Source of the DNA: Candidatus Polarisedimenticolia bacterium
GTDB taxonomy: Bacteria; Acidobacteriota; Polarisedimenticolia; Gp22-AA2
Length of the DNA: 64,000 bases
NCBI GenBank assembly: GCA_036005805.1
Contig: DASYQE010000210.1
Coordinates: 17,061-81,060 of the forward strand
Direction: 5' to 3'
The stretch's first letter is position 1. Every line of letters begins with the position of its first letter. The translations under genes and the position numbers were made by a program. The notes under the pieces were generated by a model that was given only the letters and a program-made list of their open reading frames with translations, ran no database searches and was not told the origin of the DNA. This document shows positions 2,355 through 61,778 of the stretch, piece after piece.

Positions 2355-5653
<3,299 letters not shown>

Positions 5654-55970: not shown

Positions 55971-57040
55971 GCCGCATCGTCGCCGCCGAGGCGGTGCCCA
56001 TCACCTTCCGGCTGGTCGAGGGCTACCGCATCGCCGGCCGTCACTTCAAAAGCGCCGACAATGTGTTGCTGAAGCTGGTGGCCTCGGACGGCCGCACCGG
56101 CTACGGCTGCGGCGCCCCGATGGAGGAGGTCACCGGCGAGCACCCGCGCGAGACCCTGCGGGCGCTGAACGAGGCGCTCCTTCCGCTGGCGAAGGAGTGG
56201 AACGGCGACGATACCCGGGACCTCGTGGCGCGCGCCACGACCGCCGCCCCGCGGGCGCCCGCCGCCCGCGCGGCGCTCGACATGGCGCTGTGCGACATCG
56301 ACGCGCGCCGGGCGGGGGTGCCGCTCGCCCGGCTCCTCGGATCCGATCGCACCCGCATCGCCACCAGCTTCACGTTCGGCATCGAGGACGACATGACCTC
56401 CACGGTCGAGCGGGCGCGGCGGCGCGTCGCCGAAGGGTTCCACGTCCTCAAGATCAAGGTAGGGGAAGACTGGAAGCACGACCTGGAGCTGATTCGCGCG
56501 CTGCGCGCGGCCCTCGGCCCCGGCGTCGTCCTGCGCGCCGACGGGAACGAAGGCTACGACGAGGCCTCGGCCGCGGCCTTCCTGCGCGGCGCCATGGAGG
56601 CGGGCCTGGAGCTCCTGGAGCAGCCGGTTCCGAAGGAGGACCTCGGCGCCATGGCGCGCCTCGCGACTCTGACGCGCGTGCCGATCATGGCGGACGAGTC
56701 GGTGCAGAGCGAGGCCGACGCCGAGCGGCTCATCGAAGCGCGGGCGGCGAATCTCTTCAACATCAAGCTGATGAAATCAGGCGGGGTGCTGCCGGGTCTC
56801 GCCATCGCGCGGCGCGCCGCCGCGGCCGGCATCGGCATCATGGTCGGGTGCAACGACGAGTCGCGCATCTCCATCGCGGCCGGGCTGCACCTGGCGCTCG
56901 CGGCGGCCGCGGATTCGCGCGCCGACCTCGACGGGCACCTGGATCTTCAGGACGACGTGGCGACGGGCGGGTTCCGCCTGCGCGATGGCACGCTCGAGAT
57001 CACCGGCGAGCCGGGGCTCGGGGTCGAAGCCGACTTCTGA
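55967..57040 (+). CDS. Enolase-superfamily dipeptide (L-Ala-D/L-Glu-type) epimerase
   Basis: KIKVG...LRADGNEGY...LEQP...MADES metal-ligand pattern of the MR/MLE subgroup. ATGA overlap with the DUF1611 gene. Confidence 0.8.
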   Translation: MSRIVAAEAVPITFRLVEGYRIAGRHFKSADNVLLKLVASDGRTGYGCGAPMEEVTGEHPRETLRALNEALLPLAKEWNGDDTRDLVARATTAAPRAPAARAALDMALCDIDARRAGVPLARLLGSDRTRIATSFTFGIEDDMTSTVERARRRVAEGFHVLKIKVGEDWKHDLELIRALRAALGPGVVLRADGNEGYDEASAAAFLRGAMEAGLELLEQPVPKEDLGAMARLATLTRVPIMADESVQSEADAERLIEARAANLFNIKLMKSGGVLPGLAIARRAAAAGIGIMVGCNDESRISIAAGLHLALAAAADSRADLDGHLDLQDDVATGGFRLRDGTLEITGEPGLGVEADF

Positions 57041-58425
57041 GTCCGGCGCGGCCGGCCGCGCATCCCCTCGGGCCCGAGCCCGTACAGCCGCACCTTCCGC
57101 TGCAGCGTCCGGAGCCCGATCCCCAGCGCGCGCGCCGCGCGGGTGCGGTTGCCGCCGTGCCGCGACAGCGCCCGGCGGATCGCCTCCCGCTCCATCCCCC
57201 CGAGGCTCAGCTCAGCCGGGAGATCGACGTCGTCGTCCCCGGCCGGACCGCCGCGGAACCCTTCGGGGAGATCCTCCGCCTCGATGACGAGCCCCGGGCG
57301 GATGATGGCGGCGCTCTCGAGCACGTTCTTCAGCTCGCGCACGTTCCCCGGCCACGTGTGCCGCAGGAGCACGCGCACCGCGCTGTCCCCCAGGTGTTTC
57401 CCCGGCAGGCCGTTGTCGCGGCAGATCTGCTCGAGAAGCGAGCGGGCCAGCTCGGGGATGTCCTCCCGCCGCCCGCGCAGGGCCGGCACCCGGATGGTGA
57501 TGACGTTGAGCCGGAAGTAGAGATCCTCGCGGAAGCGATGCCGGGCGGTCAGCTCGCGCAGATCGCGGTTGCTCGCCGCCAGCACACGCACGTCCACCCG
57601 CACGGCGCGCGAGCCGCCGACGCGCATGAATTCCCGCTCCTCCAGCACGCGCAGGAGTTTCGCCTGCGTGCCGAGGTCCATCTCGCCGATCTCGTCAAGC
57701 AGCAGCGTGCCGCCGTGCGCCAGCTCGAACTTTCCGCGCTGGCGCTCGTGCGCCCCCGTGAAGGCTCCCTTCTCGTGGCCGAACAGCTCGCTCTCGATGA
57801 GCGTCCCGGGAATCGCCGAGCAGTTGAGCGCGATGAACGGCCCGGAGCGCCGCGGCGAGTTGTAGTGGATGGCCTTGGCGACCAGCTCCTTGCCGACGCC
57901 GCTCTCCCCGAGGATGAGGACGGTGCTGCGGGCCGGCGCGACCTGGACGATCTGGCCGCGGACGCGCTGCATCCCCGGGGAGCGGCTGACGACCCTCCCG
58001 ACGAGGTAGCGCTGCGACAGCTCGTCCTGCAGATGGCGGGCGCGCAGGTCGTGATCCTGCCAGCGGAGCAGCCGGCCGACGCGGGCCTCGACTTCGGCTG
58101 GGGCGACCGGCTTGAGCAGGTAATCGGCCGCCCCGCGGGCGAGGGCGGCGTGCGCCGCCTCGACCTCGTCCGGGCGGGCCAGCATCAGGATCGAGGGAAT
58201 CCGGCCCCCCTCGATCAGCCGGCGCAGCGCCTCGGCGGTCCCCTGCGGCCCGAGATCGCAGCCGATGAGGGCGAGATCGAATTCCTCCCGGCGGGTCTCC
58301 CGCGATGCCCGGCCGGCATCGGCCACAGTCACGACCAGGGCCCCCATCTTCCTGAAGACCCCCGCCGTGGCGGCGCTCTCCGCCTCCCGTTCGACGAGAA
58401 GGATGTGTTTGCCTTCGAATGACAT
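56947..58425 (-). CDS. Sigma-54-dependent transcriptional activator (REC + AAA+ with GAFTGA + Fis-type HTH), NtrC family
   Basis: ILGESGVGKELVA Walker A, GAFTGA, DEIGEM and a C-terminal RAARALGIGLRTLQRK helix-turn-helix. The receiver has the Asp in FDLALIGCDLG but an atypical E-R-E acidic pocket. Confidence 0.9.
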   Translation of the reverse strand: MSFEGKHILLVEREAESAATAGVFRKMGALVVTVADAGRASRETRREEFDLALIGCDLGPQGTAEALRRLIEGGRIPSILMLARPDEVEAAHAALARGAADYLLKPVAPAEVEARVGRLLRWQDHDLRARHLQDELSQRYLVGRVVSRSPGMQRVRGQIVQVAPARSTVLILGESGVGKELVAKAIHYNSPRRSGPFIALNCSAIPGTLIESELFGHEKGAFTGAHERQRGKFELAHGGTLLLDEIGEMDLGTQAKLLRVLEEREFMRVGGSRAVRVDVRVLAASNRDLRELTARHRFREDLYFRLNVITIRVPALRGRREDIPELARSLLEQICRDNGLPGKHLGDSAVRVLLRHTWPGNVRELKNVLESAAIIRPGLVIEAEDLPEGFRGGPAGDDDVDLPAELSLGGMEREAIRRALSRHGGNRTRAARALGIGLRTLQRKVRLYGLGPEGMRGRPRRTQKSASTPSPGSPVISSVPSRRRNPPVATSS

Positions 58426-58494
58426 CGCGGAGTCTCCAAAGAAGAAGCCCGCGGGGGCGTGACTGTCCTCCCCGACCGCGCAATACTGTCATAT

Positions 58495-58545
58495 TGACGT
58501 GTTTTTATCAATGCTTAAATTGCGCCACTTTGGCCGATCGACGCT
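58495..58545. promoter_or_regulatory. AT-rich island with a CAATA-N6-TATTG inverted repeat and an IHF-like TATCAATGCTTAA; candidate enhancer/bending region for the sigma-54 promoter
   Basis: CAATACTGTCATATTGACGTGTTTTTATCAATGCTTAAATTGCG, in sequence that is otherwise about 70% GC, located 120 to 170 nt upstream of the -24/-12 element. Confidence 0.3.
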
Positions 58546-58662
58546 CGGTGTCACTTAGAGGCCGGCTCAGCAGGACTCGCATCGTGGGACAAAGGTCGCG
58601 GAAGCCGCACCCTGCGGGCTGTTCGACACGACCGCCTGAGTCCGAGCGGCGTCTCGATGGGT

Positions 58663-58678
58663 TGGCAGCATTGTTGCT
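58663..58678 (+). promoter_or_regulatory. Sigma-54 (-24/-12) promoter TGGCAG-N5-TTGCT
   Basis: GG and GC dinucleotides at the canonical 10-nt spacing, about 37 nt upstream of the 58715 ATG, with a GGGGAGGG Shine-Dalgarno in between. Confidence 0.7.
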
Positions 58679-58714
58679 CCTGGGGATGTCCAACCTGGGG
58701 AGGGTCGGGAAGAC

Positions 58715-58915
58715 ATGGCCAAGACCAAGACGGCGAAAGCGGCTCGGAAACCCAAGAAGAATCCGTACGGGATGATCGATTTCAGCTTCGGGGACACCAA
58801 GTACCAGATCGACATGAACCGCCGGAAGGTCTACTACCGCTTCATCGAGGTGGAGACCTCCAAGACGTCGCTGATCATGGGCGCCTACAACGTGGCGCTC
58901 GCCCAGGCGAAGTAA
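58715..58915 (+). CDS. Small (66 aa) Lys-rich protein of unknown function
   Basis: MAKTKTAKAARKPKKNPYGMIDFSFGDTKYQIDMNRRKVYYRFIEVETSKTSLIMGAYNVALAQAK. It sits between the sigma-54 promoter and a strong terminator. Confidence 0.55.
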   Translation: MAKTKTAKAARKPKKNPYGMIDFSFGDTKYQIDMNRRKVYYRFIEVETSKTSLIMGAYNVALAQAK

Positions 58916-58999
58916 AGCAGCACCGAGAAGCCTTCACACCGCGTCACCCGGAGCCCGGGGGGCGTGGACGTTCCTACAGCTCAAGCACCAGCCAGACCC

Positions 59000-59036
59000 G
59001 AGCCGCTTCCGTCTTCATGAAGCGGCTCTCTTTTTT
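59000..59036 (+). terminator. Rho-independent terminator GAGCCGCTTC-loop-GAAGCGGCTC plus TCTTTTTT
   Basis: A perfect 10-bp stem followed by a U-run, about 85 nt after the small ORF stop. Confidence 0.7.
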
Positions 59037-59068
59037 GGGGAAGATACGGCGGGCGCGGCGCCCGTGGT

Positions 59069-60418
59069 CTACCCGAGGACGGAGAGGTCGGGTTGCGGCA
59101 GCGGCGGCCCGGGGCGCGCGAACAGGTAGCCCTGGGCGAAGCGCACGCCGATTCTCTGCAGGCAGCGCAGCTCCTCCACCGTCTCGACGCCCTCGGCGAT
59201 GAGGGTCGTGCCGCTGGACGAAGAGAAGCGGGCGATGGTCGCGGTCAGGTCCTGCTTGATCGGGTGCAGGTGGATGTCGCGGATCAGGGCCATGTCGATC
59301 TTGATGAAGTTCGGGCGCAGCTCGGCCACCGACTTGAGCCCGGAGTAGCCCGACCCGACGTCGTCCACGGCCAGCCGGAAGCCGTGGAACTGGAAGTAGT
59401 TCAGCATCTGCCGGAAGGCTTCGTATTCCTGCACCGCCGAGTGCTCGGTGATCTCCAGCACCACCTGGGAGGGCTTGAGGTCGGCCTCCCCGAGCAGGGT
59501 GAAGATCTCCTCCGAGCGCAGCGCCGGGTCGTAGATCGAATCGGGCTCCATGTTGAGGAACAGGAGCTGGTCGGCGCGGAAGCTCTTGAGCCCGCGGATG
59601 GCCCGCTCGCGGCAGAGGCGCTCGAGCTTCCAGACCGAGTCGTTCTCGTAGGCGGCCTTGAAGAGCTGGTCCGGTCCGGCGAACGCTCCCGTCGTGAGCC
59701 GGGTGAGAGCCTCGAAGCCGATCGCCCGGCGCTCGACCATGTCCACGACCGGCTGGTAGACCGCGTGCACGGCGCCGGTCCGCAACACCTCCTTGAACTG
59801 CATCGCGACCTTGCGCTGCTCCCGGTTGCGCTCCTGGATCGAGTCCGCGAACGCCTCCTCGAGCGCGGCGTAGACGCGCCGCTCGAAGCGCAGCGCCTGG
59901 TCGTTGCTGAGGACGGCGCAGCCGACGTAGACGCCGAAGCGCTCCTGCACGTTCGGGTTCAGCCGTTCCTTCACGAAACGGGCGAGGCTCAGGGCGACGC
60001 GGCGGCGCACCTTGTCGATGTTGGGATAGGAGATCTGGTCGCTGCCGCGCGGCGGCGCCAGCAGCACCACGAAGGCGTTGCCGCTGATCATCACCTCGGC
60101 GAGCTGGTCCTCGCGGCGCAGCGTCTCCTGCTTCACCTGCACCAGGAACGACGCGATGTCGCGCACCAGCGACTCGTACCCCTGGCGACCGAGCGTCTGC
60201 TCCACTTTCTCGTTCTGCAGGATGCTGATCGACAGGAGGCCCAGCTCCTTCGACTCCTTCAGCATGTTGCGGATGCGGCCGAGCAGGAGCGGAACGGTCG
60301 GCAGGTCGGTGACCCGGTCGTACAGCAGGTCGGTGAGCGCGCCGGCGTCCTGGGACTCCCCGCGCGCGCGGAGCTCCTCCAGGAACTTCTGCTTGCGTGA
60401 CGACGAGGCGGCGGCCAT
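59069..60418 (-). CDS. EAL-domain c-di-GMP phosphodiesterase with an N-terminal degenerate GGDEF-like region
   Basis: EAL motifs (EALTRL, DDVGSGYSGL, EGVET). The N-terminal half has no GG(D/E)EF signature. Confidence 0.85.
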   Translation of the reverse strand: MAAASSSRKQKFLEELRARGESQDAGALTDLLYDRVTDLPTVPLLLGRIRNMLKESKELGLLSISILQNEKVEQTLGRQGYESLVRDIASFLVQVKQETLRREDQLAEVMISGNAFVVLLAPPRGSDQISYPNIDKVRRRVALSLARFVKERLNPNVQERFGVYVGCAVLSNDQALRFERRVYAALEEAFADSIQERNREQRKVAMQFKEVLRTGAVHAVYQPVVDMVERRAIGFEALTRLTTGAFAGPDQLFKAAYENDSVWKLERLCRERAIRGLKSFRADQLLFLNMEPDSIYDPALRSEEIFTLLGEADLKPSQVVLEITEHSAVQEYEAFRQMLNYFQFHGFRLAVDDVGSGYSGLKSVAELRPNFIKIDMALIRDIHLHPIKQDLTATIARFSSSSGTTLIAEGVETVEELRCLQRIGVRFAQGYLFARPGPPLPQPDLSVLG

Positions 60419-60431
60419 GGCTCCGGTCCCC

Positions 60432-61778
60432 CTACCCGCTCTGCGGGTGGTAGACGACGTCGTCCGCGTCGTCGGAGAAGTACTTCGGTTCGCTCGCCAT
60501 GACCCGGTTCCGCCCCGCCTTCTTGGCCCGGTAGAGCGCGGCGTCGGCGGCGGCGATGAGGTCGGCGCTGGTCAGCCCGTCGTCCGGGAAGGTGGCGACG
60601 CCGCCCGACAGCGAGACGCACTTCAGCGGCTGCGATTCGCGCGCGGCGAACGGGTGCGCGGCGAGCTTCTCGCGGATGCGCTCGGCCGCCTGCATCGCCC
60701 CCTTCTTCGGCGCGTGCGCCAGCAGCACGATGAACTCCTCGCCGCCGAAGCGCGCCGCGACGTCGTCCGGGCGCACCGTGTCGCGCAGGATCTCGCCGGT
60801 GGACTTCAGCACCTCGTCCCCCGCCTGGTGCCCCTGCGTGTCGTTGTAGTGCTTGAAGTGATCGAGGTCGAAGATGAAGAGCGAGAAGGGATGGTGCCCC
60901 TTGCTCGCCTCGAGCAGGACGTTCGACAGGCGCTCCATGAAGAAGCGCTTGTTGAAGAGCTTGGTCAGCCCGTCGATGTTGGCCATCTCCTGCGTCTTGT
61001 TGAACAGGTCGTGGTTGTACAGGGCGATGCTGCCGAGGTCGGCGATGAGACTCAGGATCGACTTCTCGTGCTTGTAGTGCCGCTTGAGGCCGCCGGCGCT
61101 GATGACGCCGCGCACCTTTCCCTCGTGGATCATCGGGGCGCACAGCTCGACGTTGAACTGGAAGTGCCCCGGCGCGTCGATGTTGGCCCCGGTCAGTCGC
61201 TTCTCGCGGATGAAGTCGTCCACGTCCATCGCCAGGCCGTTCTGCGCCACGAGGCCCAGGCGTCCCTCGCCGAACTCGATCTGGAACTGCTTGGCGAAGT
61301 CGGCCGGCAGCCCCATCTGGCGCACCAGCGCCAGCTTGTTGATGCGCTCCTCGAGCAGGAAGATGAGGATCTGCGACGGCGCGAAGAGCTGCTCGATGAT
61401 GCGCATCACCTGCATGGGGATCTCGCGCCGGTCGATGCGCGAGTTCATCCGCCGGGTGAACTCGGGCAAAAGCTGCATGAAGTTGCTGAGCGCGGCGTTG
61501 TCGCTCTCGAGGCGGGCAATGGTCTTCTGCAGATCGCGGACCTGGGAGCCGCCCTGCTCGGCCGGCTCAGGACGCGGACGCGCGGCCGGGCGGCCCGGGC
61601 CCGCGGCCGCCTGCCGGCGCCACAGGTAGAGGAAGATTCCCGCCACCAGGAGACCGACGGCGGCTCCGCCCCAGGCTGTGTGTTCCTGCAGGTATGCGAT
61701 CGTCTCGTTCACACGTGTCCCGGCGGCTCGGAGCCCGCGGTCCCGCGTCAATGTGTGGCCCGGAGTGGCTCGATTCAA
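60432..61778 (-). CDS. Diguanylate cyclase: N-terminal TM segment, GAF domain and GGDEF domain with a GGEEF active site
   Basis: RFGGEEF motif, an upstream DxLT-like IDGLTKLFNKR, and a GAF-like middle region. Confidence 0.85.
   Translation of the reverse strand: MNRATPGHTLTRDRGLRAAGTRVNETIAYLQEHTAWGGAAVGLLVAGIFLYLWRRQAAAGPGRPAARPRPEPAEQGGSQVRDLQKTIARLESDNAALSNFMQLLPEFTRRMNSRIDRREIPMQVMRIIEQLFAPSQILIFLLEERINKLALVRQMGLPADFAKQFQIEFGEGRLGLVAQNGLAMDVDDFIREKRLTGANIDAPGHFQFNVELCAPMIHEGKVRGVISAGGLKRHYKHEKSILSLIADLGSIALYNHDLFNKTQEMANIDGLTKLFNKRFFMERLSNVLLEASKGHHPFSLFIFDLDHFKHYNDTQGHQAGDEVLKSTGEILRDTVRPDDVAARFGGEEFIVLLAHAPKKGAMQAAERIREKLAAHPFAARESQPLKCVSLSGGVATFPDDGLTSADLIAAADAALYRAKKAGRNRVMASEPKYFSDDADDVVYHPQSG

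Follow-up and report, generated by a model that had tools for sequence, protein, structure and literature searches.

A conserved activator–small gene pair with a predicted sigma-54 promoter in Acidobacteriota

The DNA analysed here is a 64 kb stretch (70% GC) of contig DASYQE010000210.1 from a Candidatus Polarisedimenticolia bacterium, referred to below as the window; coordinates are those of the window unless the locus of a relative is named. The region studied (56947–61778) carries a gene for a 66-residue basic protein (58715–58915, plus strand) and, divergent from it across a spacer of 289 nt, a gene for a sigma-54-dependent bacterial enhancer-binding protein (bEBP) of 492 residues (56947–58425, minus strand). 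We propose with good confidence that these two genes form a self-contained regulatory module found across the Acidobacteriota. Its predicted parts are a bEBP independent of phosphorylation, a pair of palindromic sites, a sigma-54 promoter, an mRNA for the small protein and self-repression of the activator.

In the proposed mechanism, the dedicated bEBP would bind, as dimers, two palindromes (GYCA-N3-TGRC) in the common spacer. DNA looping and ATP hydrolysis would then open the sigma-54 holoenzyme at the element TGGCAG-N5-TTGCT, and a monocistronic mRNA for the 66-residue protein, ending at a strong terminator, would be switched on. The activator would also repress itself through the first palindrome, which lies in its own sigma-70-type promoter. 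An earlier reading made from the letters of the window alone (the sequence-only reading) had drawn attention to this region; all of the features that it located, with the exception of a site for integration host factor (IHF), are present in the sequence as it described them.

Conservation of the gene pair

The comparison was based on 40 loci (L018–L057), of which 36 were obtained by scanning one genome per GTDB species and four by contig look-ups. The activator gene was located by tblastn immediately upstream of the small gene, and divergent from it, in 39 of the 40 loci; in the one exception the contig extends for only 209 nt ahead of the small gene. The pairing spans at least four unrelated neighbourhoods, namely the window's clade, L018 together with P0078 (neighbours CarboxypepD_reg, BON and DsbD), L019 with L020 (HU, Rrf2, MoeA and a tRNA methyltransferase) and L021 (PPIase, AhpC/thioredoxin and GlnA). 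Small-protein members from the last three of these neighbourhoods are 34–51% identical. The bEBP divergent from the small gene in L018–L021 is 45–50% identical to that of the window; at P0078 the contig stops within the upstream gene, which is unannotated.

The partner activators are 45–67% identical and have a common helix-turn-helix (HTH) sequence, GGNRTRAARxLGIGxRTLQRK, which is lacking in a second, unrelated bEBP encoded in L021. The adjacent gene had been taken in the sequence-only reading as the natural activator of the small gene. The two remain divergent neighbours even where all other neighbours differ, and this synteny supports the adjacent activator as the dedicated partner. Gene order within the window's own clade (SmpB, ThiG, ThiS, DUF1611, MR_MLE, activator, small gene, EAL, GGDEF, periplasmic binding protein) says little when taken alone.

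The small open reading frame (ORF) gives a clear pattern of a real gene under purifying selection. Codon changes in its core between the window and L004 fall mostly in the third position (16 against 6 and 7 in the other two), and its Shine–Dalgarno sequence (GGGGAGGG, 58697–58704, plus strand) contains a GGAGG that is invariant across the aligned spacers. A core of 20 residues (positions 20–56) was invariant in a first alignment and most of these stayed invariant in a larger one; they include Asp22, Phe23, Tyr30, Ile32, Asp33, Arg36, Arg37, Lys38, Val39, Tyr40, Glu45, Val46, Glu47, Lys50 and Gly56. The length of the protein and the core (family pattern ΦVxFxΦxxxxYQIDxxxxKVYRRΦΦEVE, then a helix) both persist in members whose identity ranges from 95% to about 27%.

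A word-indexed search returned 52 homologue clusters at 61–95% identity, mostly of 64–68 residues (with two truncated calls of 47–48 residues and one of 76), and the close homologues that carry names come from metagenome-assembled genomes labelled Candidatus Polarisedimenticolia or similar. A profile search of 1.84 billion representatives gave 51 clusters at 50% identity, 49 of which are small proteins of 53–132 residues. The longer matches, P0097 and P0103, were rejected as repeat artefacts, and this full-library HMMER search found no domain fusions of the small protein. Almost all of the 36 loci from the species scan are titled Acidobacteriota, including Polarisedimenticolia, gp22 and Terriglobia.

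Four near-identical syntenic loci (L022–L025), each from the SMAG assemblies, carry the titles Verrucomicrobiia, Dongiaceae, Candidatus Cryosericum and Patescibacteria. These taxonomic labels look unreliable; the other relatives are Acidobacteriota.

Gene calling was found to vary for this family. In L014 (6001–6144) the small gene was called as 47 residues, 19 residues short, so that the basic tail was left out. In L018 (5001–5291) it was called as 96 residues, which is 27 codons too long and places the predicted promoter inside the ORF; from the conserved promoter and Shine–Dalgarno sequence, the true start would be the ATG at 5082. Annotation systematically overlooks such small proteins.

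The spacer and the activator

The predicted −24/−12 element, TGGCAG-CATTG-TTGCT, lies at 58663–58678 on the plus strand, with a predicted transcription start near 58689; the ATG at 58715 lies 36 nt past the −12 element. It has the GG and GC dinucleotides 10 bp apart, differs from the consensus TGGCAC-N5-TTGCW by one mismatch and is the only match with at most one mismatch in the 64 kb. Spacers between activator and small gene were compared for the window and 39 of the loci (n = 40, 15.7 kb in total). The best match had at most one mismatch in 22 of the 40 spacers, against three such matches at 667,262 background positions in the rest of the same loci, and L019 carries the perfect consensus TGGCAC-N5-TTGCT. 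Aligned spacers are about 50% identical outside a few blocks that do not vary, namely GGC, TTGCT, the Shine–Dalgarno sequence and the upstream island. The near-consensus element that the sequence-only reading had placed ahead of the small ORF is retained even in spacers that are otherwise unalignable, and we infer that the predicted promoter would fire through RpoN.

The upstream island (58480–58535) is 39% GC. It had been described as AT-rich with an inverted repeat; this was borne out, with two repeats instead of one. Palindrome 1 (GTCATATTGAC, 58488–58498) and palindrome 2 (GCCACTTTGGC, 58524–58534, 36 bp from the first) begin 175 and 139 nt ahead of the −24 element, within the range of roughly −80 to −200 for upstream activator sites, and are the only closely spaced pair of this kind in the 64 kb. 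Two GYCA-N3-TGRC copies were present in 36 of the 40 spacers, 35–36 bp apart in the window's clade and 29–34 bp apart elsewhere. In nearly all spacers their starts precede the −24 element by about 100–195 nt; the exceptions are L046 and L047, in which the −24/−12 calls are poor. The density of the motif is about 76 sites in the 15.7 kb of spacers against about 40 in approximately 330 kb of flanking DNA. The palindrome halves covary between loci (GTCA...TGAC in some, GCCA...TGGC in others), which fits a site read by a dimer. The two palindromes are likely enhancer sites, at which the activator is predicted to bind.

Palindrome 1 may have a second role as an auto-operator. It is situated within a putative sigma-70-type promoter of the activator gene (58483–58511, minus strand), consisting of a −35 box TTGATA (58506–58511), a 17-nt spacer and a −10-like CAGTAT (58483–58488). 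On the minus strand of the window's clade, TTGAC(N) is retained 8 nt from palindrome 1 and is followed by AGACT or AGTAT. From the position of palindrome 1 inside the promoter spacer, the activator probably represses its own promoter.

The IHF-like site of the sequence-only reading was not supported. The only candidate, a one-mismatch match at 58506 (TATCAATGCTTAA), sits between the two palindromes and not between the enhancer and the promoter, and it coincides with the likely −35 box TTGATA of the activator on the other strand. It was missing in 11 of 13 relatives checked, the other two each having a single one-mismatch match.

Pfam assigned to the activator a weak Response_reg match (32 bits), Sigma54_activat (PF00158, 233 bits), AAA_lid_14 and HTH_8 (PF02954, 45.6 bits), in agreement with the receiver–AAA+–HTH protein, divergent and adjacent to the small gene, of the sequence-only reading. 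The best NCBIfam match was AtoC (399 bits, under the 714-bit cut-off), and the protein scored below every NCBIfam equivalog cut-off. The Walker A and B motifs and the sigma-54-contacting loop (GESGVGKE, LLLDEIGE and GAFTGA) are invariant in the orthologue alignments and the HTH is of the Fis type. With its AAA+ motifs intact, the activator should be a competent bEBP.

The receiver domain differs from that of a phosphorylation-controlled response regulator. Its acidic pocket reads Glu12-Arg13-Glu14, which confirms the unusual pocket noticed earlier, and two further changes were found by alignment with PhoP (1mvo): Gly55 stands at the acceptor position (PhoP Asp53) and Ala83 at that of the conserved Thr, so that only Lys105 is retained. 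A nearby Asp57, two residues past Gly55, is Ala in a 96%-identical relative. The survey was extended to 40 orthologues, one from the window and one from each of 39 loci. At the acceptor position, 17 of them have Asp, 13 Gly, five Ala and five Ser, Phe or Pro; the conserved Thr/Ser is retained in seven, and the Lys position holds Lys in 17 and Arg in 14. The full canonical set of residues was seen in none of the inspected orthologues. The domain is best described as a pseudo-receiver, for which control by phosphorylation, one of the inputs put forward in the sequence-only reading, is unlikely in the window; from the residue counts it cannot be the control mechanism conserved across the orthologues. 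Without an acceptor Asp, activity would be set otherwise, by a ligand, a partner protein or the abundance of the activator itself.

The last 94 nt of the activator gene (56947–57040) overlap the 3' end of a convergent MR_MLE (enolase-superfamily) gene, and an overlap of the same length is present in the 12 relatives from the window's clade that have whole calls for the two genes. The C-terminal tail of the activator (RGRPRR...PSRRRxPPxATSS) may be partly constrained by this opposite-strand gene. Activator orthologues of the distant lineages end soon after the HTH.

The 66-residue protein

A structural model of the protein was calculated with AlphaFold2 (AF2). The predicted local distance difference test (pLDDT) score was 80 overall and about 90 for residues 20–60, with strands at 21–25, 28–33 and 38–41, a short strand at 44–45 and a helix at 48–65. 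Residues 1–6 scored below 50 and the remainder of the N-terminal tail lacks regular secondary structure. A member 33% identical to the window's protein, modelled from another alignment, gave the same predicted topology. The basic N-terminus and small β/α C-terminus expected from the sequence-only reading are borne out by the model as a disordered tail and a β3–4/α core.

The tail of the window's protein (residues 1–19) is Lys-rich and carries a net charge of +7. Across the family it has a median of 20 residues, 34% Lys and Arg, no acidic residues and a median net charge of +7. The net charge is +3 or higher in 129 of 142 members and the tail sequence itself is variable; a few members (P0059, P0063 and P0120) have long Lys/Ala/Pro-rich extensions.

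No relationship to a described family was found, as the sequence-only reading had stated. Nothing scored over threshold for the small protein in Pfam, NCBIfam, PADLOC or PHROGs, and an NCBIfam MobP1 match (17.5 bits against a 200-bit cut-off) was rejected as noise. A family profile matched no PDB chain even at E ≤ 10, the best Foldseek match of the model to the PDB had an E value of 0.73 and tblastn searches of phage and plasmid collections gave no match to the small protein. The literature searched on this module in Acidobacteria, and on Polarisedimenticolia, contained nothing relevant. The protein defines a new family of the Acidobacteriota.

Two matches below threshold were considered. Tis1_ImmP (PF24154) was found in 17 of 45 members at E ≤ 0.1 (best 3.9e-4, profile positions 15–44 of 74), with a best score of 18.6 bits against a 27-bit cut-off among 10 members scored individually. 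According to the literature, Tis1 neutralises the (p)ppApp synthetase toxin Tas1. Membership in this immunity family was rejected on the grounds that the match is below threshold, covers the first β-hairpin only and has no toxin or type VI secretion system context. Lsr2 (PF11774) was found in nine of 45 members (best E value 0.018, over 16–22 residues), with at most 13.8 bits against a 29.6-bit cut-off among the 10 scored individually; hhalign against Mycobacterium tuberculosis Lsr2 gave a probability of 40% over 23 columns. The likeness to this actinobacterial nucleoid-associated protein is a local resemblance over one β-hairpin (ΦxFxΦxxxxYxIDΦ), and both proteins are small, with a β/α module of the oligomerisation type and a basic segment. 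Membership in the Lsr2 dimerisation-domain family was rejected, the match being sub-threshold and limited to one hairpin. Both matches were treated as a common hairpin motif and not as family membership.

Because of the conserved basic tail, the compact charged core and the tight on/off control, binding of the protein to nucleic acid (DNA, or RNA and the ribosome) is put forward as the likeliest activity, at low confidence. The main rival is feedback control, in which the small protein would be a partner of its own activator, as PspA is of PspF and FliX of FlbD, and would tune it by binding the pseudo-receiver or the AAA+ domain; the module would then be a self-limiting switch with its output elsewhere. 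The strict one-to-one pairing in every lineage speaks for such a partnership, searches of the 64 kb revealed no second target promoter and the loss of the phosphorylation residues makes control of the receiver by a protein plausible. The invariant charged, surface-type residues (Asp22, Asp33, Arg36, Arg37, Lys38, Glu45, Glu47 and Lys50) would also fit a protein interface. However, the conserved and strongly basic tail would be left unexplained and PspA and FliX are unrelated to the small protein in sequence and fold. We regard feedback as unlikely.

Neighbouring enzymes, the 3' region and the standing of the module

Convergent with the small gene are two minus-strand genes 13 nt apart, with the cyclase gene upstream: an EAL phosphodiesterase of 449 residues (59069–60418; Pfam EAL, 1.3e-48) and a membrane-anchored GAF–GGDEF cyclase of 448 residues (60432–61778; Pfam GGDEF, 5.2e-48, with weak GAF matches). 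Pfam and the catalytic motifs confirm the adjacent GGDEF(GGEEF)–GAF/EAL pair of the sequence-only reading. The cyclase has a GGEEF motif preceded by RPDD (an RxxD I-site); its start codon is uncertain, relatives having 415–428 residues. In the EAL protein the motifs EALTR, LNMEP, EITE, DDVG, KID, EGVE and QG are all present, and both enzymes look catalytically competent. Residues 1–200 of the EAL protein have no Pfam match; residues from about 30 to 438 align with the GGDEF and EAL regions of PRK10060, GepA, DosP and LapD, which suggests that the N-terminus is a degenerate GGDEF-like domain.

From this neighbourhood the sequence-only reading had drawn the idea of a signalling island in which cyclic di-GMP (c-di-GMP) converges on the small gene. 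The nucleotide would control the tiny effector, or be read out by it, with either the pseudo-receiver activator or the small protein as the sensor of its level. There is precedent for this: FleQ and VpsR, both of them bEBPs, bind c-di-GMP and have receivers that are not phosphorylated, and a receiver without phosphorylation needs some other input. A GGDEF and/or EAL gene lies downstream of the small gene in 23 of the 40 loci (L022–L044 without L034, and L049), and, as noted, the cyclase with its I-site and the EAL protein look active. The adjacency is distributed like the unrelated DUF1611/MR_MLE flank, which suggests common descent within one clade; the exceptions are L030 and L049, whose opposite flank differs (the L049 enzymes being 43–49% identical to the window's), and these give a modest hint of a non-random link. 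A PilZ-domain gene, with an extra stand-alone GAF gene, is located past the cyclase in L004 (9170–9529), L010 (9294–9656) and L014 (9008–9328), and is not found in the window; the c-di-GMP neighbourhood varies in its own right.

Against such an island, 17 of the 40 loci (L018–L021, L034, L045–L048 and L050–L057) gave no tblastn match (E ≤ 0.01) to GGDEF or EAL over about 4 kb, although L034, which ends 105 nt past the small gene, says little on this point. EAL is absent from 19 of the 40 loci. It is deleted or fragmentary in L028, L037 and L038, where the cyclase, small gene, terminator hairpin and activator remain. In the window, the enzymes are convergent with the small gene, behind its strong terminator, and no −24/−12 site was found before their operon. 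FleQ contacts c-di-GMP through an Arg-Asn after Walker A (KExxxRN). These positions are Lys-Ala in the window's activator (GKELVAKAIH) and invariant in the orthologues, which argues against a site of the FleQ type and leaves room for another c-di-GMP site. The case for c-di-GMP convergence is weak and a c-di-GMP island is judged rather improbable; across the loci compared, the GGDEF–EAL operon is a neighbour in one clade and not a component of the module.

The 3' untranslated region (3'UTR) of the small gene runs for 84 nt up to a hairpin followed by a T-run. This Rho-independent terminator, which the sequence-only reading had announced, was found at 59000–59036 (plus strand) as a GC-rich 10-bp stem (59000–59009/59019–59028) with a 9-nt loop, then TCTTTTTT, with a fold energy of −21.3 kcal/mol. 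It was missed by a simple scanner because the loop has 9 nt and the scanner limit is 8 nt. A scan for a hairpin with a T-run detected the terminator in 17 loci (the window and 16 relatives), and the stem pattern was present in 30 loci.

In the clade carrying the c-di-GMP enzymes (L001–L044 equivalents) a 3'UTR of 110–130 nt is conserved (58916–59036 in the window). Its elements are a GCC[CT]TTCA motif (GCCTTCAC, 58930–58937, plus strand), a first hairpin, a CA-rich linker and the terminator. The first hairpin reads CAGCCC-GNGA-GGGCTG in most loci; the window (CCCGG-AGC-CCGGG, 58947–58959, plus strand), L006, L037 and L044 have other sequences there, which also form a hairpin. Among 26 distinct sequences the inner 8 bp of the terminator stem (GCCGCTTC/GAAGCGGC) never vary, and compensatory changes are seen in the outer 3 bp. 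The terminator loop, GGTnnTCATG, is conserved too, in surroundings that cannot be aligned. Each locus, like the window, has a single copy of the hairpin, by which a dispersed repeat was ruled out.

Such constraint on the stem suggests recognition by a protein or an RNA, and the 3'UTR might give rise to a small RNA or be bound by the small protein. On a stronger version of this idea, the 3'UTR, with hairpin 1, the CA-rich linker and the terminator hairpin, would itself be a functional RNA, either a 3'UTR-derived small RNA or a protein-binding element, and the output of the sigma-54 switch in this clade would include a regulatory RNA, perhaps of greater weight than the peptide. The invariant inner stem with covarying outer pairs, the conserved loop and GCC[CT]TTCA motif, the uniqueness of the element in each locus and its persistence where EAL has been lost are in keeping with a functional RNA. 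Against it, the hairpin is absent from distant lineages that keep the activator–small gene pair intact, Rfam gave no match on 58300–59200 and the protein is under clear purifying selection, so that the RNA would be only an added layer. We consider a functional RNA improbable. A still wider proposal, in which the 66-residue protein founds a group of small, sigma-54-gated nucleic-acid-binding regulators confined to the Acidobacteriota and could recognise the invariant hairpin of its own 3'UTR, and in which the activator senses a ligand such as c-di-GMP from the neighbouring enzymes, is speculative and quite improbable. If true, the module would link a second messenger to the global organisation of nucleic acids by a route not known before, and the protein could be a nucleoid or a ribosome/RNA factor.

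Several observations weigh against the module as proposed. A single −24/−12 match in the window is at chance level (0.71 expected; at least one match in 49 of 100 shuffles), so that the window alone is no proof of a promoter. The most distant lineages have TGGYAY-N5-TTGA at this place; the C of the −12 box is replaced, which is unusual for sigma-54 promoters. No RpoN box was found within the 64 kb window. For the autoregulated promoter proposed for the activator, the −10 box (CAGTAT or CAGACT) is weak and a consensus promoter scanner returned no match. The evidence throughout is comparison of sequences among loci.

The altered −12 box was found in L021, L046, L048, L050–L053 and L055–L057, as TGGYRY-N5-TTGA(A/C/G/T) and, in L021, as TTGGA; it reads as a consistent lineage-specific variant. 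That the −24/−12-like string is a chance match and no promoter, the ORF being transcribed by sigma-70 or being no gene, is very improbable: a sigma-70-like TTGACG-16-TAAATT does lie at 58494–58521 on the plus strand, but this string is the right half of palindrome 1 and is not retained in relatives, whereas the −24/−12 element, its spacing and its position are conserved across 40 loci and the ORF is conserved at the protein level.

The proposed two-gene module resembles known sigma-54 systems in its architecture. As in PspF–pspA of Escherichia coli, the gene of the bEBP is divergent from that of its main sigma-54 target and the enhancer sites (here predicted) occupy the common spacer, the activator is controlled without phosphorylation, the target would be tightly off until activated and autoregulation, which is our inference here, would use the same sites. 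In contrast, PspF lacks an N-terminal domain, where a degenerate receiver is retained here; PspA is a 222-residue coiled-coil membrane-stress protein unrelated to the 66-residue basic protein; and psp uses IHF, for which no conserved site was found in these spacers. With NtrC (glnAp2/glnAp1), the activator shares the receiver–AAA+–Fis-type HTH order and two dyad sites about 100–200 bp upstream of the −24/−12 element, one of which overlaps a sigma-70 promoter that is opposite or repressed. NtrC, however, needs phosphorylation of Asp54, where the window's protein has Gly, without the acidic pair and with Ala for Thr; the recognition sequence here (GYCA-N3-TGRC) and the target also differ. Receiver-like domains without phospho-chemistry, implying control by a partner or a ligand, are found in FlbD–FliX (Caulobacter), FleQ (Pseudomonas) and VpsR (Vibrio), whose targets are flagellar or biofilm genes and not, as here, a single tiny gene; the Lys-Ala after Walker A is a further difference from FleQ.

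Novelty lies in the family of the target protein, in the motif that the activator would recognise, in a receiver chemistry lost by degrees and in the conserved 3'UTR; the architecture is that of textbook sigma-54 regulation, which the module does not overturn. As a natural series of receivers with graded loss of phosphorylation chemistry, the module is useful for the study of input switching in bEBPs. Acidobacteriota are abundant in soils and sediments and hard to study genetically, and almost no regulatory circuits have been defined in them. For this phylum the module would provide a circuit map across dozens of species, with an activator orthologue group, an 11-bp palindromic motif, a predicted sigma-54 promoter and a single nearby target.

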